Notes: generated from the letters alone by a model not told the origin. A stretch of 64,000 nucleotides of DNA from a bacterium (GCA_965216315.1 CBDCFN010000015.1:128001-192000), one strand, 5' to 3'. Positions 5,491 through 41,492 are shown, counted from the first letter of the stretch. Program-made: numbers and translations.

Positions 5491-6681
5491 TCAAGTTTCG
5501 GAGAGACGCTTATTTCGTTGATGATGGCGATCTAACAGGCAATCCGCCGCGACACGCATCGCAGGCCAGGCGGGCAACGCCCGAACGATCATCCTCGTTG
5601 TATCGATGACATAATCCCCATCGACCTGAACGGGAATTGCAAAAGGCTGCCCTTTTTCATCTGAAAAGAAAATTTCCATGGACTGTCCCTGTAGCAATTG
5701 TAGCTGCAACTCCGCCTCAAGTCTTTCAATGCGATCATCAGGGCCAATTTGCATGGACTTGCCTTTCAAAGCCGCTTTCCCCTTGCCCTGCACCTCACGA
5801 AAAATTTTATACATTTGCCATATTGACCCTAGCGGATAGCCCTTGACCCCAAGACCCTGTATCGGTGTCCCCGGAAAGGCATTGCTGCCATCCGCTAAAG
5901 GCGTGCCATGAAAAAAAACCTCGCGCGATACAAACTGATGATCACCATATTGGCTATGCTTCCAATTGACATGAAAAGGGCGAGACAACACGACATTTTT
6001 TCCACCGATCATTTTGCGCTTGATATGCACCCACTTGCCGTGCCCCGTTCGCGTCGATTTGAACATAGCCGCGATGGTCGTCCCCGCACCCGCATTATGG
6101 GAAAAGATAATCGGTTCATTGATGCCATCCAGTTCAAGCCAACCAAGATTTAATGGCACCGTCGTATGAGAGCGCAGGTAATCAATGCAATCGGATTCAT
6201 TGGCACCGGGCGCCCCTGCCATAACGCTGAGGTCATTGGCACTCCCTAAACGAATCACGCCGACGCGGAGTCCACTGGCCGCCATTCGAGCCGCTACTTC
6301 GTCCGCCGACTGTTGAATCATATCTTGTTGGTTTGGAAAAATGTAGAGCAAGAGGCCACGGACTACTTCGTTCATCGTGCCATCTCCACCAAAGGCGATC
6401 ACATCCAAAGGTGTATCGGGACGGAAGGTCTTAAATTGACGAACAGCCGCCGCAACCAAACGAACCGTCTCGAAGGGATCTTCCACGGTCCTCACGGGCG
6501 GGAGCATCCTGAATTCTTGCTGCAAGGCCCGATCGGCCTCCATGACATTCGTGACATTCTCGGCAATAGTTGGGGCATTGCCGCTCCCGGCGACCGGATT
6601 CACAACGGGCAAAATATAATGAGGAGCCGCCGCCAAAACAGGCGCCAGCGAAGCTGCTGAAAGGGACCCTAAGACCACCAT
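5491..6681 (-). CDS. Diacylglycerol/lipid kinase (YegS/DgkB-like) family protein, divergent
   Basis: NPVAGSG, GGDGTMNEV, GSANDL, QVDGD motifs. Confidence 0.75.
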   Translation of the reverse strand: MVVLGSLSAASLAPVLAAAPHYILPVVNPVAGSGNAPTIAENVTNVMEADRALQQEFRMLPPVRTVEDPFETVRLVAAAVRQFKTFRPDTPLDVIAFGGDGTMNEVVRGLLLYIFPNQQDMIQQSADEVAARMAASGLRVGVIRLGSANDLSVMAGAPGANESDCIDYLRSHTTVPLNLGWLELDGINEPIIFSHNAGAGTTIAAMFKSTRTGHGKWVHIKRKMIGGKNVVLSRPFHVNWKHSQYGDHQFVSREVFFHGTPLADGSNAFPGTPIQGLGVKGYPLGSIWQMYKIFREVQGKGKAALKGKSMQIGPDDRIERLEAELQLQLLQGQSMEIFFSDEKGQPFAIPVQVDGDYVIDTTRMIVRALPAWPAMRVAADCLLDRHHQRNKRLSET

Positions 6682-6691
6682 ACCGAAGAGG

Positions 6692-6717
6692 TCTTCGGGA
6701 TGATGACAAGAAAGTTG
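6692..6717 (-). promoter_or_regulatory. CAAC-N16-CGAAGA alternative-sigma promoter motif
   Basis: GCAACTTtcttgtcatcatcCCGAAGA, 10 nt before ATG 6681; same motif precedes other orphan genes. Confidence 0.6.
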
Positions 6718-6736
6718 CTTAAAATATAAGCACTTA

Positions 6737-7495
6737 CTAAAGACGGACGGGAACCTGATTTCTCTTAAGATATCGCTTCACTTGGCCGACCGTGAGTTCT
6801 CCAAAATGGAAAATCGAGGCTGCCAAGGCAGCATCCGCCCGACCCTTGGTGAGGCCCTCATGGATGTGAGCTTGGTTGCCCACGCCCCCCGAGGCGATGA
6901 CTGGAACTTCGACGGCCTCAGCGATCGCACGGGTTAACTGGAGATCATAGCCGATCTTGGTCCCATCGCGGTCCATGCTGGTTAAGAGTATTTCGCCGGC
7001 GCCATAACGCACCATTTTTTGTGCCCATTTGACTGCATCGATGCCGGTCGGCGTGCGACCGCCATGAATATAGACCTCCCACTTGCCGGGCTTGACTCTT
7101 TTGGCATCAATGGCGACGACGATGCACTGACTGCCGAACCGCTTGGAGGCACGCTTTACCAAATCCGGATCCTTGACCGCCGCGGTATTCATCGCGCACT
7201 TGTCTGCTCCGGCCTTCAGCAACATACGCACATCTTGAATACTGCGAACACCGCCCCCAACGGTTAACGGCATAAAAACTGTTTCCGCGGTCTTGCGGAC
7301 AACATCCAAAATGATCGGGCGCCTTTCATGACTTGCCGTGATGTCGAGAAAAACCAATTCATCCGCCTTTTGCCGATCGTATTCCTTTGCCACCGCCACC
7401 GGATCCCCCGCATCCCGCAAATTGACAAACTTAGTGCCTTTGACAACGCGACCATCTTTCACATCAAGGCAAGGTATTATTCGCTTTGTCAGCAT
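6737..7495 (-). CDS. hisF: Imidazole glycerol phosphate synthase cyclase subunit
   Basis: [40 protein letters not shown]. Confidence 0.98.
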
Positions 7496-7647
7496 CAGTT
7501 AATCTCCAATAGCGAACGACGTGAGCGAGAGGGAGAGGCTCCGGAAGCTTTGCTTCTGGAGGGGGCGACGCAAGCCCCTATAAAAGCTCCTTTGACAACA
7601 CGACCGTCTTTCACATCAAGGCAAGGTATTATTCGCTTCGTCAGCAT
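7495..7647 (-). pseudogene. Duplicated hisF 5' fragment fused to a palindromic insert (50-codon mini-ORF)
   Basis: 7589-7647 repeats 7437-7495 at 56/59 identity; ORF ends in a TGATG overlap with the hisF start. Confidence 0.8.
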
Positions 7648-7649
7648 AT

Positions 7650-8372
7650 TTATTGAGCCAATTGAATCGCTTCGGCGAGATCCAAGGTTTCTTCGTAAAG
7701 CGAACGGCCCAGTATGGCTCCCGCGACTCCATCCGATTCTATCGCCTTTAATTTGGCAATATCATCGATTGTCGCGATACCCCCGGAAGCAATGACGGGC
7801 AGGCCACACTCTTGAGCAATAAACTGGGTCGCCGCAAAATTCGGGCCGCTGAGCATACCATCACGGCTGATGTCCGTATAAATGATACAACACGCACCCT
7901 TGTCCTTCATCATCTTAGCGACGTCCACGGCCTTTTGTTCCCCCGTCTCTTGCCAACCGCGTACGGCCACCAACCCGTCCTTCGCATCGATTCCCACCGC
8001 AATCCGCTCGGGAAATTCTTCGTTGAGTTGGGTGATCAACTCGGGTTCTTCCAAGGCCTTGGTCCCCAACACGATGCGACCCGCGCCGAGCGTCAAATAG
8101 ATCTCGGCAATATCCCGCGAGCGGATTCCACCCCCGATCTGGACGGGAACTTCCACTCCCTGCATGATTTGTTCGATGGCGGCCGTATTGACAGGCTTAC
8201 CTTCCAACGCTCCATTGAGGTCAACCACGTGCAACCACTCAGCCCCTTGCTCAACCCATTTCTGAGCCGCCTCGAGGGGATCCTTATAGTAGACGGTCAC
8301 ATCGTCAAAACGCCCCTGCTTGAGGCGGACAGCCTGGCCGTCTTTGAGGTCTATGGCAGGATAGAGGATCAT
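7650..8372 (-). CDS. hisA: ProFAR isomerase
   Basis: YPAIDLKDGQAVRLKQG, HVVDLNGA, YTDISRDG. Confidence 0.97.
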   Translation of the reverse strand: MILYPAIDLKDGQAVRLKQGRFDDVTVYYKDPLEAAQKWVEQGAEWLHVVDLNGALEGKPVNTAAIEQIMQGVEVPVQIGGGIRSRDIAEIYLTLGAGRIVLGTKALEEPELITQLNEEFPERIAVGIDAKDGLVAVRGWQETGEQKAVDVAKMMKDKGACCIIYTDISRDGMLSGPNFAATQFIAQECGLPVIASGGIATIDDIAKLKAIESDGVAGAILGRSLYEETLDLAEAIQLAQ

Positions 8373-8500
8373 ATTCAGTTCATTCGCGCGGAGTTAATCC
8401 GACGCTCATTCACAATCAGTATCATATTGCTGACATGCTAGGAGATTGCGCCGGGAAAATCAATTTGCCAATCAGCCTTTTCACGGCTAACTATGCGCTT

Positions 8501-9787
8501 ATGCAACAATGGCGGACTCAGCAGCGGGATTTCGAGACTAAATGGTCTCAATTGCTGGAATCGGCCTCCAGCACTGATGCCAGGGTTGAAAAGACGGTTG
8601 CTGCCATCGTTGCGAGCGTGCGACGCAAGGGCGATGCCGCCTTGTTTCGCTATACGAACCAGTTCGATCGCTGCACCCTGGACGCCAGTTCGGTTCGAAT
8701 TTCCAAACGCGATATCACCAAGGCGCTCCGGCAGGTCCCGAATCGTCACCTCACCCTTTTGCGCCGTGCGGCCGGACGCATTCGACGCTATCATCGACAG
8801 CAGAAGACGACTAACTGGAGCCTCAATCAGAGTGGTGCGCGCATGGGCCTGCGCTGGACCCCGCTGGAACGGGTTGGACTCTATGTTCCGGGCGGCAAGG
8901 CCGCCTATCCTTCAACCGTCTTAATGAACGCCATCCCGGCGCAATTGGCCGGCGTCCCGCGGCTCGTGATGGTCACGCCAACACCGGACGGCACTGTCAA
9001 TCCTTATACAATCGCCGCCGCTAAAGTCGTCGGCATCAATGAAATCTATCGCGTCGGCGGCGCCCAAGCCGTCGCGGCCTTGGCCTATGGAACGGAATCC
9101 ATCTCCGCCGTCGACAAAATCGTCGGTCCGGGCAACGCCTATGTCGCCACCGCGAAGCGGCAGGTCTTCGGTAAAGTCGACATCGATATGATCGCAGGGC
9201 CCACCGAGGTCTTAGTGCTCGCTGATGGCACGGCTGATCCCGACTTCATCGCCGCCGATCTCCTCAGCCAAGCCGAGCATGATCCCAACGCGCGACCCGT
9301 CTTAATCACGACCTCACGAGACTTGTTAACTAGCGCAAAAGCGGCTCTCCGACGTCAGTTGAAGAAAACAACCCGCCGGGGCATAGCGACTCGCGCCCTC
9401 ACGAAAAACGGCGTCGCCATCTTGGCCCGGAACCGAAAGGAAGCCATCCGACTGGCCAACGAAATGGCCCCCGAACATCTCTTACTTATCGTCCGCAATA
9501 AGGGTCCCTGGATGCGCGATATCCGCAATGCAGGAGCTATTTTTATCGGTCCCTATTCACCCGTCGCGGCCGGCGATTATCTCGTCGGACCCAACCATGT
9601 CCTCCCTACGGCACGCACGGCCCGTTACGCCTCGCCGCTCGGGGTATACGACTTTGTAAAGGCGTCGAGCTGGCTCGAGTTATCGCGAAAAGGGCTGGCG
9701 CAAGTGTCAAAGGATATAGTACAACTGGCTGAGCTTGAGGGATTGACCGCACACGGTGATTCCGTACGTATTAGACTAGATGAGTAA
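8501..9787 (+). CDS. hisD: Histidinol dehydrogenase
   Basis: GLYVPGGKAAYPS, DMIAGPTE, SQAEHD, APEHL, GPNHVLPT; ATG 8501 preferred as start. Confidence 0.97.
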   Translation: MQQWRTQQRDFETKWSQLLESASSTDARVEKTVAAIVASVRRKGDAALFRYTNQFDRCTLDASSVRISKRDITKALRQVPNRHLTLLRRAAGRIRRYHRQQKTTNWSLNQSGARMGLRWTPLERVGLYVPGGKAAYPSTVLMNAIPAQLAGVPRLVMVTPTPDGTVNPYTIAAAKVVGINEIYRVGGAQAVAALAYGTESISAVDKIVGPGNAYVATAKRQVFGKVDIDMIAGPTEVLVLADGTADPDFIAADLLSQAEHDPNARPVLITTSRDLLTSAKAALRRQLKKTTRRGIATRALTKNGVAILARNRKEAIRLANEMAPEHLLLIVRNKGPWMRDIRNAGAIFIGPYSPVAAGDYLVGPNHVLPTARTARYASPLGVYDFVKASSWLELSRKGLAQVSKDIVQLAELEGLTAHGDSVRIRLDE

Positions 9788-9792
9788 TTTGG

Positions 9793-9882
9793 CGCGGGTG
9801 GCACGCGAGAAACTTTTTTAAGAGCGAGTCCCTTCGGGACAAGTGGTTTAAAAAATTGTTTCGAGCCGTGACAGGACCCGCG
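9793..9882. repeat. Long imperfect palindrome in the hisD-hisB spacer
   Basis: Nested pairings cgcgggt/acccgcg, cacg/cgtg, gaaac/gtttc, tttttaa/ttaaaaa; apical gtcc-cttcg-ggac. Confidence 0.6.
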
Positions 9883-9895
9883 AATTGAGATCAAT

Positions 9896-10486
9896 ATGGC
9901 CACACGCAAAGCGCGCATTGAGCGCAAGACCAAAGAGACCGACATCAAACTCGAGATCCAACTCGATGGAACAGGGAGCTACGAGGTCCAGACGCCAATC
10001 CCCTTTTTCAATCACATGCTCGAGCTCTTCGGCAAACACGGCCTTTTTGAGTTCAAGGTCCAGGCCAGCGGAGACGTTGAGGTTGATGATCACCACCTTG
10101 TCGAGGACGTCGGGATATGTCTCGGTGAGGCCTTGCGTGAGGCTCTAGGCGACAAGAAGGGTATTCGCCGTTACGGCTTCTTTACGGTCCCGATGGACGA
10201 AACCCTGACAACGGTCACGGTCGATTTCAGTGATCGTCCGGCCTTTGTTTACAACACGCCTTTGAAAACCGGGCTCATCAAAGAGTTTGACGTCGAATTG
10301 GTCGAACACTTCTTCGAGTCGGTGTGCCAGTCCGCCCGCATCAATTTGCACGTCAATGTCCACTACGGCAAGAACAAGCACCACATCGCCGAGTCGATCT
10401 TTAAGGCTTTCGCCAAGGCGGTCGATGTCGCGACACAGATAGATCCTCGCACGGATGCCGTGCCTTCGACTAAGGGAAAACTGTAG
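9896..10486 (+). CDS. hisB: Imidazoleglycerol-phosphate dehydratase
   Basis: DDHHLVEDVG, PMDE, NKHHIAES, PSTKG. Confidence 0.98.
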   Translation: MATRKARIERKTKETDIKLEIQLDGTGSYEVQTPIPFFNHMLELFGKHGLFEFKVQASGDVEVDDHHLVEDVGICLGEALREALGDKKGIRRYGFFTVPMDETLTTVTVDFSDRPAFVYNTPLKTGLIKEFDVELVEHFFESVCQSARINLHVNVHYGKNKHHIAESIFKAFAKAVDVATQIDPRTDAVPSTKGKL

Positions 10487-10499
10487 GGGTGCTGCGCCG

Positions 10500-11108
10500 T
10501 CACAAGGCTACAAAATTCGACAATAGCTTGAGCCCGGCGGTTTGTGACTTTTCCGGGTGAAACTGGCACGCAAACAAGTTCCCGCGAGCCACGCTGGACA
10601 CGAAATTCTTGCCATATTTTGTCCGGGTCGCGACGACACTGCGCTGCGTCGGCACCACATAATAGGAGTGTACAAAGTAAAAATCCGTTCCACTGCGAAT
10701 ACCCTTGAGATAAGGCGTCGCATTGACGCGCTCGATCTGATTCCAACCCATGTGCGGAATCGTATATTTCTTCGGTAATTCAAAGCGTACGACTTTGCCG
10801 GGAAAGACACCGAGACATTTGTGCCGGCCAAATTCGTAACTCTCTTCAAAAAGACATTGAAAACCCAAGCAAATTCCCAGGAAGGGCTTGTCTTGATTAA
10901 TCGTCTCTAAAATTGGATCGATGAGTCGATATTCCTTCAAGTGCTTCATGCAGTCACCGATCGCACCAACACCTGGCAAGACAACCTTATCTGCACGTCG
11001 GATCGTCCGCGGCGAGCGGGTGACAACCGCCTTGCCACCGGCATGCTCGACGGCCTTCTGCACGCTACGCAGGTTCCCCATTCCGTAATCGATAATCGCA
11101 ATCGTCAT
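10500..11108 (-). CDS. hisH: IGP synthase glutaminase subunit
   Basis: DYGMGNL, GICLG, FYFVHSY, QFHPEKS. Confidence 0.98.
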   Translation of the reverse strand: MTIAIIDYGMGNLRSVQKAVEHAGGKAVVTRSPRTIRRADKVVLPGVGAIGDCMKHLKEYRLIDPILETINQDKPFLGICLGFQCLFEESYEFGRHKCLGVFPGKVVRFELPKKYTIPHMGWNQIERVNATPYLKGIRSGTDFYFVHSYYVVPTQRSVVATRTKYGKNFVSSVARGNLFACQFHPEKSQTAGLKLLSNFVAL

Positions 11109-11167
11109 TGAAAGGGGACCTCATCATTTTGAGGATCAGAGGTCAACTTGATAGGGAGAAGTAATGA

Positions 11168-12004
11168 TCAGTCAAATTCCTTCTCTTGAATCGATGCTTG
11201 CAAGATAGTCGTAATCTCTTCGACGCCGGCCCGCGGGTTTTCAGCACACGCAATGTCGAGTTGCTGGCAACGTACCCACAGGTTTTCATCCCAGCTTTCC
11301 AGATGACACCAAGCAATCATAAAGTCGCCGACGGACTCCTCATAACGAACAATAGAACTCTCATCGCACGCTGCTGAGACACGATTTTCTCTCTCGAGGA
11401 CCTTGCGACAGATCTCTGTAAGTTCGTGAATCTGCGCCTGCAACTGCTCACACTCATCCACCTTTCCTTCTGGCCAGTGTGCCAAACGGCATCTCGGCGG
11501 CATTGCATCTGAATCGATTTCAATGACTTGCTTCAAACTCGGCGTCTGTTCGAAGTCTTGACAGATTGTTAACATGCTACCATGGCACCTTTGCTTTAAG
11601 ACACGAAACCATTCCCTTTCGTCGCTGCACACACTCCAGGGCATCTCGTCATCATAGATCTTGAGTCGGCACCTTCTTTCACCGTTCTCTTGCCTGACAT
11701 CAACCGCTTCCCTGAAGGTCGACGAACGGATCTGCTTACACTCACGCAGGCTCGACAGCGTCTCACGCAGATCGTTATACCGCTCGAAATCAACACGCCG
11801 AATCTTCCTTTCAGGATTCGTACTCTCAGTCGCAGGGGGTCGATTGGGAGTCGTGGCAGCCGATTCTGCTGGCACATCGACTTCTGCATCATTCTCGGCC
11901 ATATCAATTGAGGTTGTGTCCAAATTCATTGGAGCCGTGGTCGGACAAGCGGACAGGGAGGTGAAAAAAACCAACGAAGCAACTAAACAGAGAACGCGTA
12001 TCAC
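11168..12004 (-). CDS. Cys-rich lipoprotein with three internal repeats
   Basis: Lipobox LSAC; 12 further Cys; RCRL, RCRL and WCHL repeats. Confidence 0.7.
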   Translation of the reverse strand: MIRVLCLVASLVFFTSLSACPTTAPMNLDTTSIDMAENDAEVDVPAESAATTPNRPPATESTNPERKIRRVDFERYNDLRETLSSLRECKQIRSSTFREAVDVRQENGERRCRLKIYDDEMPWSVCSDEREWFRVLKQRCHGSMLTICQDFEQTPSLKQVIEIDSDAMPPRCRLAHWPEGKVDECEQLQAQIHELTEICRKVLERENRVSAACDESSIVRYEESVGDFMIAWCHLESWDENLWVRCQQLDIACAENPRAGVEEITTILQASIQEKEFD

Positions 12005-12222
12005 TTATTCAGTTTGCCCTATATTCCTAGCTTTGGGAAGACAAAAGCTTTACAAGAATCGACGAACACAATTCAAAAAACCGAACTATTTCCTAATGTT
12101 AGCTTCATCAAGAATCGAAGGTTCGGTCATCTATTTCTGACCTATCCCGATATCAAAAAACCTGTGGTTTTCGACCCGGCAGCAGCGTAAAATCCTATCT
12201 AAGGATAGAGAGGGGGAATGAA

Positions 12223-12612: not shown

Positions 12613-12630
12613 ATTTTAAGCTTTACGGCC

Positions 12631-13887: not shown

Positions 13888-13895
13888 ACCCTGCT

Positions 13896-24015: not shown

Positions 24016-24501
24016 ATGCCATCTTTCGACATTGTCAGCGAATTAGATCGCCAAGAACTCAAAAACGCCGTCGACCAAGTCATCCGCGAAGTCAAACAAC
24101 GCTATGACTTCAAGGGCAGCAAATCAGAGATCAAGGAAGAGAATGACAACCTGACCTTTATTTCTGACGACGACTTTAAAATGAAGGCCTTGATCGACAT
24201 CTTCCAATCCAAGGCCGTCAAACGTGGCCTCGACCTCAAAGCCTTTGATTATGGAAAAATAGAACCTGCTGCAGGCGATACCGTACGTTGTTCGGTGAAA
24301 GTCGTCGAAGGTATCGAAAAAGAAAAGGCTAAAGATCTGGTCAAAAAGATCAAGGACATGAAACTCAAAGTTCAGGCTGCCATTCAAGAGAACCAAGTCC
24401 GCGTGACCGGAAAAAAACGCGACGATTTGCAGGACGTCATCGCCGCCGTCAAAGGCTTGGACTTTGCTATTCCGTTGCAGTTTGAAAATTTCCGGGACTA
24501 G
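24016..24501 (+). CDS. yajQ: YajQ family nucleotide/c-di-GMP-binding protein
   Basis: MPSFDIVS, RYDFKG, RVTGKKRDDLQ, NFRD. Confidence 0.96.
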   Translation: MPSFDIVSELDRQELKNAVDQVIREVKQRYDFKGSKSEIKEENDNLTFISDDDFKMKALIDIFQSKAVKRGLDLKAFDYGKIEPAAGDTVRCSVKVVEGIEKEKAKDLVKKIKDMKLKVQAAIQENQVRVTGKKRDDLQDVIAAVKGLDFAIPLQFENFRD

Positions 24502-25316
24502 CTATCGCGAGGTCTCGATGACGGTGGCTTACTCCGCCGCAGCAACTGGTTACTTAGTTGATAAAGGTGAAAACTAAGTTTGCGGTGGAGCCCGAGCTGC
24601 ATTACTTGCTCGGCTAAGGCGAGGGAATGACTCAAGAGGCGCTCGATATGCTCAGGCTTGAGGTGACCGCTGGCCGCTCTCAGGGCTTGGCTCACTAATT
24701 TCAAATCATCAAAGTCTTCATAGGCCAGCGTCTGGCGAGCCTCATCGTCATCAATTTCCTCATTTTCTTCATCATGCTCTGCGTGGATCAGCAATATCGC
24801 TAAATCAACTTGCTCTTTAGCAAACTCGAGAGCACGAACTTCATCATTCAACTGAGAGGCATAGTGGCTCGCACGGCCCAAAAGGTCATACTTCTCGAGA
24901 CCGGCCTCCATGCCCATCAAGGCCTCCTGGAGCAGTATAAGTGCCTCCGTCTCAATAAGTTCAGCGAGTAGAGCATCGGCGAGTAACGGCGTGTATTTGA
25001 AGCCGGTCGGATCGTCTTCGCTGGGCGGGACCGAGGGGCTTTTACTTAAGCCGGCTGTCATCCGGTCATGAAATAATTGAATACGGTCCAAGCCACTCAC
25101 GGGTCGACCCATCCTTACGGCGTAGAGCATGCAGAAATCCCTGAGGGGAGCGACCAACATGCCGGCAATTAACTGCCGGCCATCGGTCACCGAGTCATCG
25201 ACGATGCCGGCTTCCCGCGCTGCTTGGTACAAATTATTGACTAACGAGGGCTTGGGAGAACCCGCCGCAAGCAAACAAGCGGACTGACTAGAGATGCTGA
25301 CGCCAAGCAGATTCAT
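24498..25316 (-). CDS. Hypothetical helical protein (paralog of 25332..26570)
   Basis: 272-aa ORF; motifs shared with the upstream neighbour. Confidence 0.7.
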   Translation of the reverse strand: MNLLGVSISSQSACLLAAGSPKPSLVNNLYQAAREAGIVDDSVTDGRQLIAGMLVAPLRDFCMLYAVRMGRPVSGLDRIQLFHDRMTAGLSKSPSVPPSEDDPTGFKYTPLLADALLAELIETEALILLQEALMGMEAGLEKYDLLGRASHYASQLNDEVRALEFAKEQVDLAILLIHAEHDEENEEIDDDEARQTLAYEDFDDLKLVSQALRAASGHLKPEHIERLLSHSLALAEQVMQLGLHRKLSFHLYQLSNQLLRRSKPPSSRPRDS

Positions 25317-25331: not shown

Positions 25332-26570
25332 TTAGTCTCGCTCCGAGGGACCTTTGACAGGCCGGGTGGGGCGGCTGTCCTCACCGTCTTCTAGTTCGCC
25401 CTCTAGTTGTTGACGCATTTTATCCTCATGACGCCCGGCCCATATATGTAGACGTTCGGCCACATCTCCTTCAAACTTGTGTTCCGTAATCTGTTTTAAT
25501 AGCGCTAATGACTGCTCATCAACCGGCAGCCGATGCAATACAGCAAACATTTGTCTGAAAAAACCACCCGCCCACTCATGTTCACCCCCTTGAGCCAAGG
25601 TCCGTCCGGCGATCCAGAGATATTCGAAGCGGCGTGCGACATCCTCACGATCGATATGGCCAATAATGCGCTTGATATTATCGTAATGGGCATGAGCCTT
25701 ATCTTCTTCGCCTTGACTCAATTGCCGCAAGACCGATTCGGCTTCTTCGCCGATGACATCAACCAGCTTCGGCATGATTTTCCGTAGCGGCTCTTCCACG
25801 TTACTTGGCAACAACTCCTGAACCAGTTGTTGTTTGAGATGTTCGAGAGATGTTTTTTCGTGTTCCTGGGCCACACCGCTTAAGTCTGATTCCTTTAAAG
25901 TGCGCTGTGCATATTCGATTAAGTCGAGACGTTCTTGTATATTAAAAAAACTCAGGTCTTCGATCACCATGCGAAGTTGATTAAACGCGACGACATATAC
26001 TGTGCTGTCTTCCCCCCTATTGGCAATCTTTTGCCAATCCGCATCCACCTTCAACATTGTAAATGCAATTAATGACTTTGCTAGAGAGATAGCGTGAATT
26101 CTTTTACCCATTGTCACTGCATCAAGGATATCCTGAATCCTTAGGCGGCGTTCAACAGCATAATCGGTAAGATCCGTTACCTTAGGACCATCATCATGGG
26201 CTCCAAAAACTTTCAACGAGACAGCAAGAGAATCGCTGCCTAGCTCTTCTAACAATAAATTGGCGAGATAAAGGCAATAAATGCTTCTATTAGAGCTATC
26301 AACCAACTCGCCAAGCTCACCTATCTGATCGGCATCGAGGCCCTTAGTGACACGTTCATGAAACACAGAGAGGCTACTGGTTTTGCCGCAGACATCATTG
26401 ATCTGATTGGCGAGCAACAGTGCCAATAGCGAACGCGGTCCTTCATGTTTATAGACAGTCCCTCGCTCTTCATGGTGAAGAACGAGAAAATTACTCCAGA
26501 GTCTTGGAGTCTTACTGCTGGCGAGGATCGCCGTCGTCGCCAACGATGACGCATTCATCAATATATGCAT
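25332..26570 (-). CDS. Hypothetical helical protein
   Basis: 412-aa ORF with a CAAC-N16-CGATAA motif 7 nt upstream. Confidence 0.72.
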   Translation of the reverse strand: MHILMNASSLATTAILASSKTPRLWSNFLVLHHEERGTVYKHEGPRSLLALLLANQINDVCGKTSSLSVFHERVTKGLDADQIGELGELVDSSNRSIYCLYLANLLLEELGSDSLAVSLKVFGAHDDGPKVTDLTDYAVERRLRIQDILDAVTMGKRIHAISLAKSLIAFTMLKVDADWQKIANRGEDSTVYVVAFNQLRMVIEDLSFFNIQERLDLIEYAQRTLKESDLSGVAQEHEKTSLEHLKQQLVQELLPSNVEEPLRKIMPKLVDVIGEEAESVLRQLSQGEEDKAHAHYDNIKRIIGHIDREDVARRFEYLWIAGRTLAQGGEHEWAGGFFRQMFAVLHRLPVDEQSLALLKQITEHKFEGDVAERLHIWAGRHEDKMRQQLEGELEDGEDSRPTRPVKGPSERD

Positions 26571-26577: not shown

Positions 26578-26683
26578 TTATCGCCTACCGCAGGCGCTTG
26601 TTGTGACGCGTAAGGATTATCTGTTTACTGGAGTCAACAGATAACGAACTGCATAGACAACAGATATTTCTAAAAGTCGAAAA
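26578..26683. promoter_or_regulatory. Back-to-back CAAC-N16-CGA promoter motifs
   Basis: Minus strand 26578-26603 CAAC-N16-CGATAA; plus strand 26658-26683 CAAC-N16-CGAAAA. Confidence 0.62.
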
Positions 26684-26692: not shown

Positions 26693-27607
26693 ATGTACAG
26701 CTCTCTCGCAGTAATAAATAGCGCGGCGCTAAGCGGGTCGCTGGTCCTCGCGTCGGGGAGTTACCCTCCGGCCCCCGAAACCCCTCATTCCAATTCGAGT
26801 CCCGTCGATGTCTTTGCCACAACGTTTCCCGGCCACGCGCTGGGGCCCTTCACTACTACCGTACGTTATCCACAGCTCCGCGAGGATATGCCCGTGTTGG
26901 AGCCTGAGGGTGGAGAAAGCGCTTTAATCGCACTGGGTCTCTTCGCCGAAGTCGGTGCTTGTTTCTATTTTGCATCGAATGGAACATTGCTTTCTCCATT
27001 ATTAGCTGTTTCCTTAACCGCTTTTGCCGCAACTGTGTTTGTTGGAAGCCGTGTGTTAGGAAAACTAGTTGAACGCTATCTAGACCATATCCGCTCCGAC
27101 CAAGATCCACAGAGTCAAGAGTTTCAACAGGTGGAGTCAAGATTAGCGGGGCTCTATCCCGAAACAGAACGTTATCTCAGAATCGGCCCCGGCGTTAAAG
27201 AAAGTGATCGAACTCATTATAAGAAGTGGCGGCAGGATATTTCTGAGGCCATCCTACAGCTCAAACATATTCGCCAACGAGACCCGATGCGCATCCTTAA
27301 ATGGCTACCTCCCGGCTGGGCCATTCGATTCTTCTTATATTTAGATAACAGCCGTGAGGCTCCTATTTATAAACATGAACTAATGACGCAAGTCATCGAG
27401 GCCCATGAGAATAGACTCGCACAAATTCCGCTTGAACTCTCAGACTTCTACAGCGCCTTCCGGGGCCGCGTTCACTCTCGTCTCCACTTTGGTGACCTTA
27501 TCCCGGATAGCCAAGAGAAATTAGAAGCAGAAGCGGAACTCGCTGAAGCTGAATTGGCGGGAATAGAAGCGGACGATCGGAAGGCAATCTACGACCCAGA
27601 CGACTAG
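26693..27607 (+). CDS. Hypothetical protein with two hydrophobic segments
   Basis: 304-aa ORF; hydrophobic at about aa 77-122. Confidence 0.7.
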   Translation: MYSSLAVINSAALSGSLVLASGSYPPAPETPHSNSSPVDVFATTFPGHALGPFTTTVRYPQLREDMPVLEPEGGESALIALGLFAEVGACFYFASNGTLLSPLLAVSLTAFAATVFVGSRVLGKLVERYLDHIRSDQDPQSQEFQQVESRLAGLYPETERYLRIGPGVKESDRTHYKKWRQDISEAILQLKHIRQRDPMRILKWLPPGWAIRFFLYLDNSREAPIYKHELMTQVIEAHENRLAQIPLELSDFYSAFRGRVHSRLHFGDLIPDSQEKLEAEAELAEAELAGIEADDRKAIYDPDD

Positions 27608-33759: not shown

Positions 33760-33780
33760 GACTCCACTCCTTACCCAATG

Positions 33781-33853
33781 TGGGCCCGATAGGACTTGAA
33801 CCTATAACGACCCGGTTATGAGCCGGGTGCTCTACCAATTGAGCTACAGGCCC
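33781..33853 (-). tRNA. tRNA with CAT anticodon, probably tRNA-Ile2 (lysidine); CCA not encoded
   Basis: GGGCCTGTAGCTCAATTGGTAGAGC..CCCGG-CTCATAA-CCGGG..GGTTCAAGTCC; paired 1-72 end. Confidence 0.93.
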
Positions 33854-33865
33854 TCGAACCCCTAC

Positions 33866-33897
33866 AAAAAAAGGGGCGACTTCTCAGTCGCCCCTTT
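33866..33897 (-). terminator. Intrinsic terminator after rpoD
   Basis: aaaggggcgac/gtcgccccttt stem with a T-run on the minus strand. Confidence 0.8.
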
Positions 33898-33903
33898 ATG
33901 CTC

Positions 33904-35667: not shown

Positions 35668-35724
35668 AATCGTAGCTCCCTATATCACTAATATTATCGT
35701 CAACCCGATCGTTCCAATTCCGTC

Positions 35725-35808
35725 GTTTCACCAACTGAAAGCGCAGCTTCCAGTTTGCTCTAGTTAGGGGCGAGAATCCTCTCTCCCCCTAACGACCCCC
35801 ATCGTTAG
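35725..35808. repeat. Structured repeat copy 2 (dnaG-rpoD spacer)
   Basis: gtttcaccaactgaaagcgcagcttccagtttg...ggggcgagaa..ctctcccc..ccccatcg; abuts the dnaG stop. Confidence 0.8.
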
Positions 35809-37584
35809 TTAACCCCCGATTAAAAGCCTATTATGCTCCGTCATCAGCTCTATGACGCGACCGGTATCGGCCTCAGCCTCGGCCTTTCGAAGCTGGCTCG
35901 CCAAATTCTGTCGTTGCGCCACGAGATGTTGGCGCTGCAAGCGCTGTCGACAGGAAGTCACCAAATCTTCCGCTTCCCCGGCGTCAACGCTTGAATCAGA
36001 CAGGAGCAGTTCGGTCAGTTCCTGACTCAAACCCTCGTCTGCCAGCCCCCCCAGGATTTCGGCAGGCGACCGTCCTTGGTCCAGGGCCGCCTGAAGGCCA
36101 GGCCACAGCCCGCGTAGGACCGTATGCTGCCAATCCCCGGCTTCCAGCTCGTCACGAAGGGCCGCAGCCCCTTCCACATTAGATAAAACCGCTCTTAAGA
36201 GGTCTCGTTCAAAGGGAGTGAGACGCACGCCCTTATGACGCCGAGCGTCAATATCATCGGCCGGTGCCTGTACAAAGTTGCGTCCTCTGTGCCCTAGAGC
36301 CGTTATCTCACGCCGGATCACCGCCTCCGTAAGGCCTAATTTTGACGCAAGTCTCTGAATATACAAGCCTTTTTCGACTTCTTCGACGATGCGCGCTAAC
36401 TGAGGCACGAGCTTACGGGCCGCCTGGACCTTGCCGACGTTGTCTGCGGGGCTCTGGGCCACCACTTTATCGATAAAATAATCCATCAATGCGGGTGCCG
36501 CCAGGAGTCCCGCCCCAAAATTTTCCCGGCCCTCGGTGCGGATAAAGCTATCCGGATCCTCCCCTTCGGGCAGGGAAAAAATGCGCGTCGGAATCCCCAG
36601 TGGGCTCGTCGTCTCCAGGGACCGCCAGGCCGCCTTGAGGCCCGCCTGATCCCCATCAAAGATCACGACGAGTTCTTGGGAGTGGCGACTGAGTCGTTTG
36701 ACCTGGTCCGCGGTCAACGCGGTACCTAAAGGGGCAACGGTATGAGTGAATCCATGCTGCGCCAGGGCCAGGACGTCCATATAGCCCTCAACAATCAAGG
36801 CCTGCTGGGCTTCGCGCAACGATGTCCGCGCCTCGAAGAGACCATAGACCTCACGCCCTTTGTGATACAAAGGCGATTCCGGCGTATTAAGATATTTGGG
36901 TTGTTGGTCGTCGCTGAGACTCCGCCCGCCAAAGGCGATGAACTGACCCGCACTGTTGCGGATGGGAAATATCAAGCGCCCCCGAAAAAAATCAAAATAG
37001 TGACCATCATCCCCGCGACGTAATAGGCCGACCTTTTCAGCCAGTTCCAGGGGAACCTTTTTTGACTCAAGATAGCGTGCGAGTTCACGGCCACTCGATG
37101 GGGCAAAGCCAAGCAAAAAATGCTGCGCCGTACGCGCTTCGATGCCCCGTTGCTTTAAGTAGTCCGCTGCCTGCCGACCCGAACCGCTCTCATCGTGGAG
37201 TTGATTAAAATAGAATTCGGCGGCCAGGTGATTGACGCGCGCATACCGCTTCTTAAGCTGGAGCGATTGGGTCTCATCATTGCGACCGTCAAAGCGAATG
37301 TCCACGCCGACTCGCTCGCCAAGCGCTTGCACCGCCTCCACAAAGGAGATGCCTTCAAACTTCATTAAAAAAGTGAAAACGTTTCCGCCTTCTCCGCAGC
37401 CAAAGCAGTGAAAAATCTGCTTATCGGCATTGACCATAAAAGACGGCGTCTTCTCAGTATGGAAAGGGCAGAGACCCTTATGGTTGCGCCCCGACTGCTT
37501 GAGAGGCAGATACTCCGAGACAAACGCGACGATATCGACGCCTTCGCGGATCTTTTCCAGCTGTTCGTCTGGAATGAGGCCCAC
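35809..37584 (-). CDS. dnaG: DNA primase
   Basis: CPFH..CFGC zinc finger, KYLNTPE, VEGYMD, FDGDQAG, EDPD. Confidence 0.97.
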   Translation of the reverse strand: MGLIPDEQLEKIREGVDIVAFVSEYLPLKQSGRNHKGLCPFHTEKTPSFMVNADKQIFHCFGCGEGGNVFTFLMKFEGISFVEAVQALGERVGVDIRFDGRNDETQSLQLKKRYARVNHLAAEFYFNQLHDESGSGRQAADYLKQRGIEARTAQHFLLGFAPSSGRELARYLESKKVPLELAEKVGLLRRGDDGHYFDFFRGRLIFPIRNSAGQFIAFGGRSLSDDQQPKYLNTPESPLYHKGREVYGLFEARTSLREAQQALIVEGYMDVLALAQHGFTHTVAPLGTALTADQVKRLSRHSQELVVIFDGDQAGLKAAWRSLETTSPLGIPTRIFSLPEGEDPDSFIRTEGRENFGAGLLAAPALMDYFIDKVVAQSPADNVGKVQAARKLVPQLARIVEEVEKGLYIQRLASKLGLTEAVIRREITALGHRGRNFVQAPADDIDARRHKGVRLTPFERDLLRAVLSNVEGAAALRDELEAGDWQHTVLRGLWPGLQAALDQGRSPAEILGGLADEGLSQELTELLLSDSSVDAGEAEDLVTSCRQRLQRQHLVAQRQNLASQLRKAEAEADTGRVIELMTEHNRLLIGG

Positions 37585-37606
37585 CAGTTCCCCCTAGCTT
37601 CTTTAA

Positions 37607-38053
37607 CTATGATCCTAAACGTTGTTGAACTAACTGCTTGACGATCTTCCCGTCAGCCCGCGTCCCCAACTCCGACATCACGGGTTTCATGACCTTACCA
37701 AAATCTTGTGGCCCTGCAGCCCCGCTTTCCTGAATTACTTTGTCAACACACGCGGCGATCTCCGCCTCACTTAGTGGAGGCGGCAACAGGGTCTCTAAAA
37801 ACTCTATCTCTTCCGCTTCTTTGGCGGCCAATTCATCGCGACCCGCCTTTTGAAATTGTTCGATCGATTCCTTGCGCTGCTTGATCAGCGTTGCGACCAC
37901 CTTTTGAGAATCGCCCTCCTCCAGAGGAGCCCCTTTTTCAATCTCTTTATTTTTGAGCGCCGCCTGAGTCATCCGGGCAACATCAAGACGCACCTGCGCC
38001 TTTGCCTTCATCGACTCGACAACAGCCCGCCGGACCTCTTCGAGGATGCTCAT
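37607..38053 (-). CDS. yqeY: GatB/YqeY domain protein
   Basis: KQRKESIEQF, GKVMK, RADG; lies between rpsU and dnaG. Confidence 0.92.
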   Translation of the reverse strand: MSILEEVRRAVVESMKAKAQVRLDVARMTQAALKNKEIEKGAPLEEGDSQKVVATLIKQRKESIEQFQKAGRDELAAKEAEEIEFLETLLPPPLSEAEIAACVDKVIQESGAAGPQDFGKVMKPVMSELGTRADGKIVKQLVQQRLGS

Positions 38054-38056
38054 TAA

Positions 38057-38257
38057 TTATCTACTCTCTCTTAATCGAACTTTTTTGAGGGCTCGTTTGC
38101 GCGCAGCAATGGCCTTCTTTTTGCGTTTGATTGAGGGCTTTTCATAGTGCTCGCGCTTTCTGATCTCTGAAAGGATGCCTAATTTTTCGCATTGCTTTTT
38201 AAAACGCCTCACCGCTTGTTCAAAACCTTCGCCTTCTCTAATCCTAATACCTGGCAT
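38057..38257 (-). CDS. rpsU: 30S ribosomal protein S21
   Basis: [14 protein letters not shown]. Confidence 0.97.
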
Positions 38258-38429
38258 GGATGGCAGACACCCCCTTTACGTGACGTCGTAACTTCACCTG
38301 GAATTTAACTAAAAATTCCTGTCAATTCAATAGTTTATCAAAAGAGAGTGCTTTTAAATGAGCGGGGTCTCCCTGTCAAGATAATTGCTGATGGATGATT
38401 TCATCACACGCGGGAGCTGGAAAAATGCA

Positions 38430-38455
38430 CAACAGTTGGGCAGGCGGTCCGAAGA
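38430..38455 (+). promoter_or_regulatory. CAAC-N16-CGAAGA promoter motif
   Basis: 6 nt before ATG 38462. Confidence 0.6.
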
Positions 38456-38461
38456 GGGATT

Positions 38462-39832
38462 ATGTCATTGGGACTGAGCTCAATTGGCTCACTGCACACC
38501 GCCACGCTGATGACATCGGGGCTATGTGCAGCGACCTCGACGTCTTCGTTCAGCGCCGACCAGCTAAGCGCCTTTAATCGGCTGACCATCGCCGAGGATC
38601 ATCGGCCGGACTATCCCGGCGGCCCTCTCGGCACGCGCCACTTTAACGGACAAGTTCTCACACCCATCGCAAGCCCGCGGGCCTCGATAGGAAACGTCTT
38701 GTTGATCAATTCGGGCGGAGACAGCCGCGGCTACAACTGCATCAACTACGGAGCCTATCTCGAACTCACCGCCGGTAAACTCCGTGTCTTTGGCAGCATG
38801 AACGGTTTTGCGGGACTGACGAATCCACGTCCGCAGATCATTGAGCTCAACTCGCATATCACCTCGCAGCTCGCCCACGAAGGGCACCTGCTGCTCGCGA
38901 CCGGGAGTCGTCGCTGCGGCCCTTACGACCAGATTCCAGGCCTCGCCCAAGAGGCGCCGTTGAATAACTTCATGGCGAACATCGCCCCCTTTCTCGGTGG
39001 CCTGCTCGTCGTCGGTGGCGATGGAACCCTCCAGCTCTGCCAACGACTCGTAAAGGAAGCAGGGATCAAAAACCTGATCTTCGCCGGGGCGAGTATGGAC
39101 GGGGACATCCCGGGCATGGAGTCCTCGATCGGTATGGACTCCTCCCTCGACTACGTCGTCGGCGCCATTCGCTCGATCCAGCGAACATCCGGCAGTTGCA
39201 ACAAAGTCCACATCATTCAGACGATGGGCGGAAACAGCGGCCGTTTTCCCCTGGAAGCCGCCCACTCGGCCGGCATCCGGGCCGTCATCGTCCCCGAATT
39301 GGGTACGATAGACATGCAATACATCTACCGCCTCTTATTTAAGTCTTTACTGGAAAATCGCGGCGCCGTCCTCGTCATCGGGGAGAAGGGGAGTTACCGC
39401 ACCATGCACGGGGAAAAAATTTCCTTCGCCCCCCAAAAGGGTTCGATGAACGGCAAAGAGGTTGAAAAGTTGCGCGCGATCGTCGATCAAGAAATGAACG
39501 AGGTAGCCGCAACACTTTATCCTGATCTCAAAATCTCCACGCGCACGAACATTCTCGGTCATGCCCAACGCCAGCCCGGCAAATTGGCGCAAATCGATCT
39601 TCGTGAGGGCATGGATATGGGGCGCCGCATGGTCCGCGCCCTGCTCGGAGGAGATGAGGGAATGATAATCCCTATGGATGAACGTGATCCGATGATATCA
39701 ATTGACGATGCCCTCTCAGAAAATTCGCGGCAGGCCGGCCGAACCCGCGTCCTCAAGCGCTGGCTGGACAATTTTGGGCCCTTTTATCCGGAGCTCACAG
39801 ACCGATTGCGTGAACGCGAATCCCGCCCGTAG
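38462..39832 (+). CDS. Divergent PfkA-family (6-phosphofructokinase-like) protein with N-terminal extension
   Basis: SGGDSRGYN, GGDGT, SMDGDIPG, SIG, TMGG, LGHAQR. Confidence 0.78.
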   Translation: MSLGLSSIGSLHTATLMTSGLCAATSTSSFSADQLSAFNRLTIAEDHRPDYPGGPLGTRHFNGQVLTPIASPRASIGNVLLINSGGDSRGYNCINYGAYLELTAGKLRVFGSMNGFAGLTNPRPQIIELNSHITSQLAHEGHLLLATGSRRCGPYDQIPGLAQEAPLNNFMANIAPFLGGLLVVGGDGTLQLCQRLVKEAGIKNLIFAGASMDGDIPGMESSIGMDSSLDYVVGAIRSIQRTSGSCNKVHIIQTMGGNSGRFPLEAAHSAGIRAVIVPELGTIDMQYIYRLLFKSLLENRGAVLVIGEKGSYRTMHGEKISFAPQKGSMNGKEVEKLRAIVDQEMNEVAATLYPDLKISTRTNILGHAQRQPGKLAQIDLREGMDMGRRMVRALLGGDEGMIIPMDERDPMISIDDALSENSRQAGRTRVLKRWLDNFGPFYPELTDRLRERESRP

Positions 39833-39839
39833 TTTCTAG

Positions 39840-39865
39840 CAACTTTTCTCCCGCCCCGGCGACAC
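39840..39865 (+). promoter_or_regulatory. CAAC-N16-CGACAC promoter motif (weaker -10)
   Basis: GCAACTTttctcccgccccgGCGACAC upstream of ORF 39909. Confidence 0.5.
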
Positions 39866-39908
39866 AGTCGGTGGTTGTTGTTAATCATCCCATTCGGGAG
39901 GGGACTCT

Positions 39909-41492
39909 ATGCACATGTCATCGGCACTTTTAAATACGGCACTCGTAAACCAATCGGCTCTGGCAGCCTCATCCACCGTTACCACGGGAATCAACCTGCC
40001 TTATCCTTCGGGAACGCGTTTTCTCCACGAGATACTCGTGGACACCGCTGCAACCGCCCGTTTCGCCAACATCTTTGCAGATGTTCGCCTACCGAGCTCC
40101 CCGCAAGATTTTCAACGGACTTATCGTCACGCGGTTATGCATTTTGAAGGGGCCCGCACCGCCTCACCGGATCGCACCGAGATCGCCACTCATCTGGCCG
40201 GCTTGTCGCAGGAGCGCATGGTATATGTTGATGAGACCGGCAAAGAAATACCGCTACTCGACTACATGTTAGGGGAAGCGGATCCACTGCCGATCGCAAC
40301 CATCGAGTTCTCCGGCGCGGGGTTGATGCCGCGCATTTCTTACGGCAACACGACTCATCAAGGTGAGGAAATCATTTCCCTCGCCAGTGATTTTGCGGAC
40401 CGTCACATGGCCTCACACGCCGCAACGGATGCCTTGCAATGGATTATTGAAAACGGCCGCGATGAAAATGGGCACGTCAATTTAAAGGGTCAGAAGTTTG
40501 CGATCCTCGGCGCAGGAGCCGAATTATCGCCGACCCAAGTTCTCCTTGAGGCCGGTGCCGATGTCTTGTGGATTGACCTCAATCCCCCCTCGGAAGAGTT
40601 TCTTCAGCGACCCGGACTCAGTGGCAGCATTACTTTTGTCCCCGAGCGCCAGGCGGACCTGCTGAATCGACCTCGCGAAATCGCCGAGACGATTGAAAAG
40701 TTCGCTGACGGCCAAGCCGTCAACATCGGAACCTTTGCCTACGCTGCCGGCTCCGGCCTCGAGTGGCGGCTGACCACGGCGATGAATGTCATTGTACGTC
40801 GCCTGCGTCCCGAAACGATCAAATCATACAGTACGTTTATCTCGCCGACCTCGCCGGCCGTGACGCAGCCGGACGACTTAGACGCGGCCCGTGCCGGAGT
40901 GCGCGTCAAGCACATGTTGGTTTCGGCCGCACGCCTCTTCGGGCGTCTTCGACCAAATCACCATCCATATGGCAATATCCATATGGCCGATACAATCGTG
41001 CCCTTGCAAAAAACGGGCTATCAAGGGGCCCAATACATCGAAAAAGTTTGTGCCGCCGAGGCCATCGCCGCCTACGGCAACCGGATGGACCGGCACATCG
41101 GCCACCCGGTCACCGTCTCCGCCAACGTCGCGGGCATCAGCCAGACCAAGAACATGCAGATCCCCGCCTTTCAATTGGGTTTCATCGGGGCGCCGGCTTT
41201 TGGACTTGAGACCTACCAGCCGGAAACCACGCGCTGGCTCAGCGGGTTAATCATGTTATCGGATCTCTTAAACGAGGCGTCGCCGGCAACACCTTCAACG
41301 TCCTATCGCGATGAACAGGATCGGGCTCGGGCCCTCTTTTCACGCCAGGTTCACGGGGGGATCTTTGCCCACCCCTATGCCTTGAATGAATTAATCACTT
41401 TGGCGGGACTCGTCGGAGCAAAGCGCAACCTGCGGCTGGCCGCGCGCGCACTCGCCGAACAATTAAAGGGTGGCAAGAAAAAGAAAGGCTAA
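39909..41492 (+). CDS. Hypothetical protein with Rossmann-like motif
   Basis: 527-aa ORF; FAILGAGAELSP..LLEAGADVLWID dinucleotide-binding-like segment. Confidence 0.75.
   Translation: MHMSSALLNTALVNQSALAASSTVTTGINLPYPSGTRFLHEILVDTAATARFANIFADVRLPSSPQDFQRTYRHAVMHFEGARTASPDRTEIATHLAGLSQERMVYVDETGKEIPLLDYMLGEADPLPIATIEFSGAGLMPRISYGNTTHQGEEIISLASDFADRHMASHAATDALQWIIENGRDENGHVNLKGQKFAILGAGAELSPTQVLLEAGADVLWIDLNPPSEEFLQRPGLSGSITFVPERQADLLNRPREIAETIEKFADGQAVNIGTFAYAAGSGLEWRLTTAMNVIVRRLRPETIKSYSTFISPTSPAVTQPDDLDAARAGVRVKHMLVSAARLFGRLRPNHHPYGNIHMADTIVPLQKTGYQGAQYIEKVCAAEAIAAYGNRMDRHIGHPVTVSANVAGISQTKNMQIPAFQLGFIGAPAFGLETYQPETTRWLSGLIMLSDLLNEASPATPSTSYRDEQDRARALFSRQVHGGIFAHPYALNELITLAGLVGAKRNLRLAARALAEQLKGGKKKKG

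Follow-up and report, generated by a model that had tools for sequence, protein, structure and literature searches.

A 64,000-nt stretch of bacterial DNA (GCA_965216315.1 CBDCFN010000015.1:128001-192000), here called the window, encodes six proteins that begin with an uncharged leader rich in Ser, Ala and Leu, and the same kind of leader, or tag, recurs across the genome behind a sigma-28-like promoter that also precedes genes for a secretion system of type III (T3SS). Judged from sequence, the tag is probably a type III export signal carried by a large set of effectors that would be delivered into another cell. The window is part of contig C15 of a 2.96-Mb genome (G000), which is 98% complete and most likely belongs to the class UBA10199.

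The six open reading frames (ORFs), named here by their lower coordinate, have the N-termini that an earlier note on this DNA had given them: 5491 (5491..6681, − strand, 396 aa; tag at residues 1-20, 6622-6681), 24498 (24498..25316, −, 272 aa; residues 1-21, 25254-25316), 25332 (25332..26570, −, 412 aa; residues 1-19, 26514-26570), 26693 (26693..27607, +, 304 aa; residues 1-23, 26693-26761), 38462 (38462..39832, +, 456 aa; approximately residues 1-24, 38462-38533) and 39909 (39909..41492, +, 527 aa; residues 1-22, 39909-39974). Their first ~19 residues are uncharged as described there, the first Asp, Glu, Lys or Arg falling at residue 41, 22, 20, 29, 33 and 37, respectively, and the xLA[AS][AGS] motif is present in five of the six, with a looser L-C-A-A in 38462. 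All six also lie behind the CAAC-CGA motif to which the note had drawn attention. Five have their own CAAC-N16-CGA, and 24498 is the second gene of an operon, starting after a 15-nt gap behind 25332 and having no promoter of its own. The promoters are located at 6694..6717 (−, CAAC-N16-CGAA) for 5491, 26580..26603 (−, CAAC-N16-CGAT(AA)) for the 25332-24498 operon, 26658..26681 (+, CAAC-N16-CGAA) for 26693, divergent from and back to back with the preceding one, 38430..38453 (+, CAAC-N16-CGAA) for 38462, and 39840..39863 (+, CAAC-N16-CGAC) for 39909. The distance from the end of CGA to the ATG is 9-13 nt for four of these five promoters (13, 12 and 9 nt for 5491, 26693 and 38462) and 46 nt for 39909; the 13-nt spacing would give 5491 a near-leaderless mRNA. 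The short CAAC-N16/17-CGA pattern also arises by chance within genes, with 36 sites in the 64-kb window.

Genome-wide, tag and promoter are strongly linked, in keeping with the earlier proposal of a co-regulated family. Gene calling with a dicodon model that was self-trained yielded 2,496 genes, some starts of which are wrong (the 5491 start was missed in the promoter-blind test). CAAC-Nx-CGA within 80 nt ahead of a candidate start was found at 218 sites for x=16, compared with 18-44 at seven other spacings, and gave the logo RCAAC(ttt)-N16-CGATAA. When gene starts were chosen blind to the promoter, 91 of 178 promoter-bearing genes had no Asp, Glu, Lys or Arg in residues 2-20, compared with 98 of 2,318 others (odds ratio 23.7, p = 1e-62), which argues that the link is not due to chance; at other CAAC-CGA spacings, just 0-1 of 7-26 genes had such an N-terminus. 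A tag rule for an uncharged Ser/Thr/Ala/Leu N-terminus, written after the data had been seen, marks 161 of the 2,496 genes, amounting to 9.8% of called residues: 100 are preceded by a CAAC-N16-CGA promoter of their own (odds ratio 41), 14 are operonic, 15 have a variant or more distant site (background 90/2,246) and 32 are unlinked. Less circular than this rule are the promoter-blind test and a held-out hidden Markov model (HMM), which was trained on 79 N-termini of contig C16 only and applied to 481 genes of other contigs. The HMM ranked the window proteins 1, 4, 18, 20, 28 and 30; 17 of its top 20 genes were promoter-linked, and none of 383 internal control windows reached the top-40 score. 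The exact promoter occurs in 23-101 copies per genome in 41/41 class genomes, compared with 0-8 for a reversed control, these genomes being kin and not independent.

Of the 100 tagged genes that have a promoter to themselves, 49 start at most 15 nt from CGA, only 6 of these with a Shine-Dalgarno-like word, and their sigma-28 transcripts may form a large leaderless or near-leaderless group. We rejected the tag as a by-product of leaderless translation because it is equally common on the 51 genes with long leaders and on the 29 that are operonic or have a variant promoter. Among the proteins that the promoter drives are also untagged ones, some with ordinary signal peptides, including true Sec and lipoprotein genes. 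Separately, a further promoter-driven group starts with MGDG- or MGDN- or has an early Cys (MC-, MGC-, MASC-; C16:692172, 1960441, 1901642, 1610949, 2164778-2185583 and 2309001), possibly representing a second signal class or lipidation sites.

Homologs suggest that the tag was added to its proteins. The earlier note had allowed that the true starts might lie downstream, and this was not borne out: the Pfk-like and diacylglycerol kinase (DAGK) orthologs in G001 and G002, the family's two other genomes, keep promoter and tag with unrelated tag sequences, and codons 2-50 of 26693 hold no other in-frame start codon. The promoter site of 38462 is present ahead of both orthologs, with N17 in G002. 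Homologs of 39909 start at median query residue 19, and only one of 119 (P0004) has an extension bearing the tag; three more of the 119 pass the tag rule by starting inside an uncharged part of the domain. A tagged multi-domain acetyl-CoA carboxylase (ACC) fused to biotin ligase is encoded at L087:6080-13846 (C16:1632121-1639887). Among the 120 ACC homologs listed, none of the 115 more distant ones is tagged, the five closest have 0-2 charges in residues 2-20, and the biotin ligase domain is confined to four of those five. This pattern fits a promoter-plus-signal unit that may have been grafted onto new cargo. In samples of promoter matches, zero-charge N-termini followed the promoter in 10/14 cases in G001, 3/8 in G002, 4/23 in G040, 1/6 in G037, 0/16 in G031 and 0/2 in G003; as these counts fall outside G001 and G002, the strict tag appears to characterise the family, and some other families have looser apolar leaders. 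Two loci present other N-terminal arrangements. A promoter-driven GatA-like amidase (C16:992461-993870), 43% identical to an untagged paralog at C16:2252250, has a native N-terminus that lost its charges with no tag added. A tandem array of eight Laminin-G3/ConA-like paralogs (L069; C16:444170-456124) has five tagged members and three with other N-termini; their bodies are 50-90% identical, and the differing N-termini on shared bodies suggest leader swapping.

We next consider the tag itself. Residues 2-20 of the 91 promoter-bearing uncharged proteins, a set selected for zero charge, are 16% Ser, 10% Thr, 17% Ala and 17% Leu. Near residues 14-21, the motif [LMIVA][LMC]A[AS] occurs in 51 of these 91 N-termini, compared with 5.8 when shuffled, and its information content is 7.3 bits compared with 5.6-6.0. 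The codons of L-A-[AS] in 64 genes roughly match genome codon usage, which argues that the signal acts at the protein level and led us to reject an RNA-level signal. The tags are N-terminal, biased to Ser/Thr and low in charge, as are T3SS effector signals, which are described as N-terminal and Ser/Thr/Pro-biased in the available part of that account (PMC8047123), and an export signal made of small non-polar N-terminal residues has likewise been described (PMC8983047). The Tat hallmark RR was found within the first 30 residues of only 2 of 129 tagged promoter-linked proteins, residues 2-20 being excluded by definition. A 42-residue hydrophobic stretch also occurs in just 2 of 129 tagged proteins, and a family resembling chlamydial Inc proteins, of which such a stretch is a feature, was therefore rejected.

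The earlier note had named type III, flagellar, type IV and extracellular contractile injection systems (eCIS) as possible machines, and of these the T3SS is present, with the same promoter class, and the other options found no support. The genome holds one type III cluster, at C16:339-372 kb, with SctU encoded separately, elsewhere. SctV scored 806 bits, passing its own cut-off of 692, and 698 against an FlhA cut-off of 772, which it fails; SctN scored 620 over 605, the same gene reaching 638 over 630 for FliI clade 2; and SctU, at 357 against 358, fell barely below its cut-off yet scored better than FlhB. The cluster includes SctJ, L, N, O, P/FliK, Q, R, S and T-like genes, several of them below cut-offs, together with FliO-, FliG- and FliM-like remnants, FHA proteins and two LcrH/SycD-like TPR proteins. 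The injectisome core (SctRSTUV, SctN, SctJ, SctL, SctO and SctQ) is thus present in G000, and SctV was found in 40/40 class genomes, in 39 of them over the cut-off. No match in G000 was obtained for flagellin (PF00669) or rod (PF00460) families, hook and motor genes not having been searched, nor for PF04984 (phage sheath), PF05943 (VipB) or PF19044 (TraG-type ATPase), at one marker family per system. For pilus/VirB11 ATPases (PF00437), only GspE from the type II secretion machinery (T2SS) was over the cut-off in G000, and no Tad or type IV pilus (T4P) ATPase was found. A search for CesT chaperones was uninformative, with 0/11 genomes and no control genome matching.

Inside the T3SS operon lies a FliA/WhiG-like sigma factor gene (best match E 1e-38, below the cut-off) with relatives at 47 loci on genome contigs, and in the complete loci of relatives the sigma gene is likewise within the T3SS operon. 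The −10 box of the promoter, (GC)CGATAA, is of the sigma-28 type, and its −35 box is RCAAC and not TAAAG or TTAAG, TAAAG being the sigma-28 −35 box. The sigma-28-like protein of the cluster is the likely reader of the promoter, going by these features. Extracytoplasmic function (ECF) sigma factors were set aside as less likely readers, both ECF genes standing in ordinary anti-sigma contexts and the −10 box being of the sigma-28 type. The + strand of the cluster carries six promoter-type sites (N16-18), ahead of sctV, a needle-like gene and putative translocator genes, and one gene inside the cluster is itself tagged, as is its G001 ortholog.

The needle-like gene (L014:9385-9936; C16:347385-347936) encodes a protein with a long low-complexity N-terminal region and stands beside a TPR chaperone gene; its order with the neighbours at 347020 and 348043 is kept in relatives. 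At E≤10, a profile of 21 homologs matched no PDB sequences but four, each of which can be ascribed to a T3SS needle subunit (E 0.013-0.92); a 43-residue chain of a needle co-chaperone entry gave the best match. Single members match weakly (1/21 to TIGR02105, E 0.078; 1/21 to PF09392, E 0.023), and the ESM Atlas lists a Myxococcota cluster that carries PF09392 on 11% of its members (0.91). A model of the needle-like protein in complex with the adjacent TPR protein reached 0.86 compared with 0.02 for the best control, and it may pass by its likeness to solved needle-chaperone complexes; the mark, a contact agreement of at least 65% with a partner predicted local distance difference test score (pLDDT) of at least 52, was reached by 116/157 solved pairs and 2/215 mismatched pairs. 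These matches and the model point, weakly but specifically, to a needle subunit SctF with its TPR chaperone. An assignment of C16:347020 as SctE was dropped, as no family supports it. Between the LcrH/SycD-like genes we also observed five paralogs (L015:6938-15710; C16:362938-371710) of 298-611 aa with a common C-terminal helical hairpin, present in 12/40 class genomes with one query, which are candidate tip, translocon or filament proteins.

The cargo was surveyed by a Pfam scan of 147 of the 161 tagged proteins, with five window proteins and one cluster protein scanned separately and eight not fetched. A match at E≤1e-4 was obtained for 47 of the 147 and none for the other 100; a few of the matched proteins are false positives of the tag rule. 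Regulatory cargo includes histidine kinases, receivers, GGDEF, adenylate cyclase, RelA/SpoT and sigma region-4 domains, and Ser/Thr kinases; enzymes include RtcB, helicases, malic enzyme, glutamate dehydrogenase, an aromatic amino-acid lyase, a pyridoxal phosphate (PLP) enzyme and a class V aminotransferase; and further cargo includes a type I fatty acid synthase (FAS)-like protein, the ACC-biotin ligase fusion, an AMP-binding ligase and acyltransferases. The catalytic motifs of the tagged enzymes, in what we take to be their usual form, look intact by eye. For Pfk, malic enzyme, cysteine desulfurase, RtcB, glutamate dehydrogenase, ACC, biotin ligase and DAGK the genome also encodes untagged twins, and none was found there for the aromatic amino-acid lyase, the FAS-like protein or a MurG-like glycosyltransferase; overall, 100 of the 161 tagged proteins are without a paralog in G000. 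Ankyrin, LRR, F-box and U-box domains were absent from the 147 tagged proteins scanned. Also under the promoter are three patatin-like paralogs (motifs by eye) with short uncharged leaders, at C15:72917, C16:1780244 and C16:1781404.

Together, these features suggest a mechanism in which the sigma-28 paralog of the cluster would co-induce machine parts and ~200 scattered genes, of which ~130-150 products start with 20-30 uncharged, weakly hydrophobic residues ending in [LMIVA][LMC]A[AS]. Such tags would have been attached to enzymes, regulators and orphans that arose by duplication or acquisition, much as a Chlamydia housekeeping enzyme is reported, in the accessible portion of its description, to have become a substrate through a gained T3S signal (PMC9251005). 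The export gate or a chaperone would recognise the uncharged leader and L-A-[AS] motif, and the cargo would thread the gate and needle, presumably crossing the outer membrane, into a target cytoplasm with ATP, GTP, CoA, NAD(P) and RNA on hand. If the tagged proteins are exported, their destination should be the interior of another cell, because the tagged enzymes need a cytoplasm.

Several observations weigh against a type III signal. The xLA-S/A motif is compatible with the −3/−1 rule of signal peptidase I. Some cargo is very large (3,854 and 2,588 aa). No dedicated secretin SctC was found, the only full secretin being GspD of the T2SS in the gsp cluster (521 bits compared with 131 for SctC), with a further short, weak secretin match at C16:16617, and the machine therefore falls outside the canonical injectisome class. 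The putative translocators match just generic coiled coils in profile and fold searches (best Z 10.8, in the helical-bundle range), with no usable Atlas match. On most of the machine's own presumptive substrates the tag is missing: residues 2-20 hold 3-6 charges in the needle-like, rod-like and ruler genes, and only one of the five putative translocators passes the tag rule. The strict tag is confined to the family level, though the whole class has the T3SS and the promoter; the tag rule misses 89 genes that bear the promoter and picks out 32 that are not linked to it, several of these 32 looking like false positives of the rule. Finally, known T3SS effectors, so far as the available text of PMC8047123 covers them, have no common motif, unlike the present tag.

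We weighed three other explanations. The tag might act inside the cell, as a degron, a compartment sorting tag or a regulatory leader of isoenzymes in a sigma-28 life-cycle stage, with the T3SS merely co-regulated. The dependence of the cargo on cytoplasmic cofactors, its resemblance to a second metabolism and the many near-leaderless starts speak for this, as do the uncharged hydrophobic ends, L-A-A being reminiscent of Lon/Clp degrons, and in Bdellovibrio FliA became a global stage regulator, according to the part of that study available (PMC3627812). We nevertheless consider an intracellular role unlikely: the tag is as frequent on long-leader and on operonic or variant-promoter genes, and such a role leaves unexplained the position of the sigma gene in the T3SS operon of relatives, the tagged proteins without a paralog, and the ACC's own biotin ligase, given the untagged ligase in the genome.

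Alternatively, the tag might be an atypical, weak Sec signal, cut by signal peptidase I after xLA to release the cargo into the periplasm and perhaps onward through the type II system. In favour of this, xLA-S/A is compatible with the −3/−1 rule and has Pro just before it in 10/66, but the commonest residue at −3 is Leu (28/66); a T2SS with GspD and GspE is present, and true Sec and lipoprotein genes are among those that the promoter drives. A Sec signal has a basic n-region and a strongly hydrophobic h-region, and the tags have neither: their best 11-residue hydrophobicity has a median of 1.53 (n=108, 95th percentile 1.99) compared with 2.75 for lipoprotein signals of the same genome (n=55, 5th percentile 2.25; p = 2e-24), so that the two ranges barely overlap. 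Only one signal peptidase I gene was found, and Pfk, ACC, RtcB and RelA-like domains have no substrates in the periplasm, which makes this reading quite improbable. No better placed is an export signal for some other, unrecognised route (a dedicated translocase or chaperone, vesicles, or T3SS to the periplasm and then GspD); the conserved motif, unusual for T3SS effectors, the missing SctC and the untagged structural substrates would suit it, yet no other candidate machine appeared among the families searched and the needle-like subunit with its chaperones implies an extracellular conduit, and we regard it as a long shot.

Returning to type III export as the function of the tag, the recipient may be another bacterium, because the cargo consists of bacterial-type enzymes and regulators, untagged twins exist, and no ankyrin, LRR or F-box matches were obtained. 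A fuller version, which we put forward tentatively as a possible but doubtful reading, is that UBA10199 are parasites or predators that inject a tagged kit of ~150 proteins into living prokaryotic cells via a needle-bearing, secretin-less type III machine. The kit would then comprise a metabolism that can be transplanted (Pfk, malic enzyme, self-biotinylating ACC, type I FAS, acyltransferases and amino-acid catabolism) along with regulators suited to a bacterial cytoplasm, including RtcB and proteins with histidine kinase, receiver, GGDEF, adenylate cyclase, RelA/SpoT-like or sigma region-4 domains. Consistent with a prokaryotic target, ankyrin was found in 2/27 class genomes, thus being absent from 25, and ATP/ADP translocase-like matches in 4/27, and neither was found in G000. 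Against it, no pilus or flagellar motor for reaching prey was found (flagellar motor genes were not searched), prey walls need crossing, and a protist host is possible.

Within the window, the earlier description of the tags as fused to cytoplasmic-type folds holds for two of the six proteins. The 5491 product is of the DAG kinase family (PF00781, E 8.6e-12), with the tag immediately ahead of the first strand of the kinase domain and an untagged paralog at C16:2226756. The 38462 product is of the phosphofructokinase family (PF00365, E 6e-36) and is additional to an untagged housekeeping Pfk at C16:651721. In 38462 and its orthologs, MGG replaces the housekeeping copy's MGR in what we take to be the sugar-phosphate-binding motif, and the substrate of the tagged enzyme may differ accordingly. 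The other four have no family by Pfam scan: 24498, 25332, 26693, and 39909, a member of a widespread unnamed family with a GAGAE motif visible by eye. The 24498 and 25332 products are helical orphans with a weak mutual likeness (E 7e-4, tag included in the comparison); with 25332 as query, no relative was found in 7/7 relatives searched, and its model is all-helical and of low confidence (pLDDT 54), with no match in a fold search. In the orphan 26693, residues 77-118 form a hydrophobic stretch of 42 residues, and the protein is therefore not plainly cytoplasmic.

Other features of the window were recorded in passing. A predicted lipoprotein with an ordinary signal is encoded at 41489-42361(−), with an N17 promoter variant ahead of it at 42379-42403. 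Sites of the form TGGCAC/TGGTAC-N5-TTGC, which we take to be of the sigma-54 type, lie upstream of 43523-49201(−), which encodes an orphan of 1,892 aa that includes a kinase-like stretch, and of two small orphans at 53112-53549(−) and 3700-4320(+). At ~7495-7650(−), a second copy of the initial hisF codons stands just upstream of the intact gene, with a short hairpin-like element between.

Should the proposed reading be correct, a whole uncultured class would gain a probable lifestyle, contact-dependent injection, and a predictable list of substrates. The set would rank among the largest of type III effectors proposed, at ~10% of coding capacity and with an unusually stereotyped signal, and because of that stereotypy, the old question of what the type III export gate reads could be addressed by mutating the motif. 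Judging by the cargo, the metabolism of a target cell, possibly bacterial, may be taken over wholesale, in which case this would be an injectisome reprogramming bacteria instead of eukaryotes, with substrates predictable from sequence. In literature titles and abstract openings (supplements and most subscription journals not covered), no UBA10199 secretion system, effectors or tag were described.

Among known systems, whose accounts we cite from the portions available, non-flagellar T3SS effector signals are alike in their N-terminal site, Ser/Thr richness, low charge, diverse cargo and co-regulation with the machine (PMC8047123). The present tag differs in being Leu/Ala-rich, uncharged over ~20-35 residues and endowed with a common motif, most effectors sharing none (PMC8047123). 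Here a sigma-28 paralog would be the regulator, and the cargo largely comprises enzymes and regulators of bacterial type. The sigma-28-dependent Feds and FspA of Campylobacter are also sigma-28 co-expressed non-structural proteins, discussed among type III-exported proteins, but they are a handful using a flagellar machine, with no common tag described in the text available (PMC9856085). The FliA attack-phase regulon of Bdellovibrio bacteriovorus likewise has sigma-28 as a global stage regulator and a −10 box of CCGATA; it differs in its −35 box (TTAAG compared with RCAAC here) and in belonging to a flagellated organism, and the same limited text describes no T3SS-linked tag (PMC3627812). The phosphoglucomutase CT295 of Chlamydia trachomatis is, like the tagged enzymes, a housekeeping enzyme with an N-terminal T3S signal gained in some lineages only; it is one enzyme of glycogen metabolism in a eukaryotic vacuole, whereas here dozens of duplicate enzymes (lipid, amino-acid, RNA and signalling) lie under one promoter (PMC9251005).

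By analogy, the closest machine is the secretin-less myxobacterial system. The Myxococcales T3SS, including T3SS* of M. xanthus (MXAN_2434-2464), is similarly non-flagellar, has no secretin of its own, carries LcrH-like chaperones and comes from a related lineage, and T3SS* acts on bacterial prey (PMC3459982, PMC12075869, PMC10433427). As described in the available parts of these sources, T3SS* has no needle or translocon, works with a Tad pilus and has unknown effectors (PMC3459982, PMC12075869, PMC10433427); in G000, where no Tad or T4P ATPase was found, there are a needle-like subunit, five candidate translocators and definable candidate substrates. That a Myxococcota cluster carries the needle annotation suggests a second look at 'needle-less' myxobacterial systems. 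With its needle, absence of an own secretin, FliO-, FliG- and FliM-like parts and sigma-28, the machine resembles the flagellum-injectisome intermediate inferred by Abby and Rocha, as far as the part of their work available describes it (PMC3459982).

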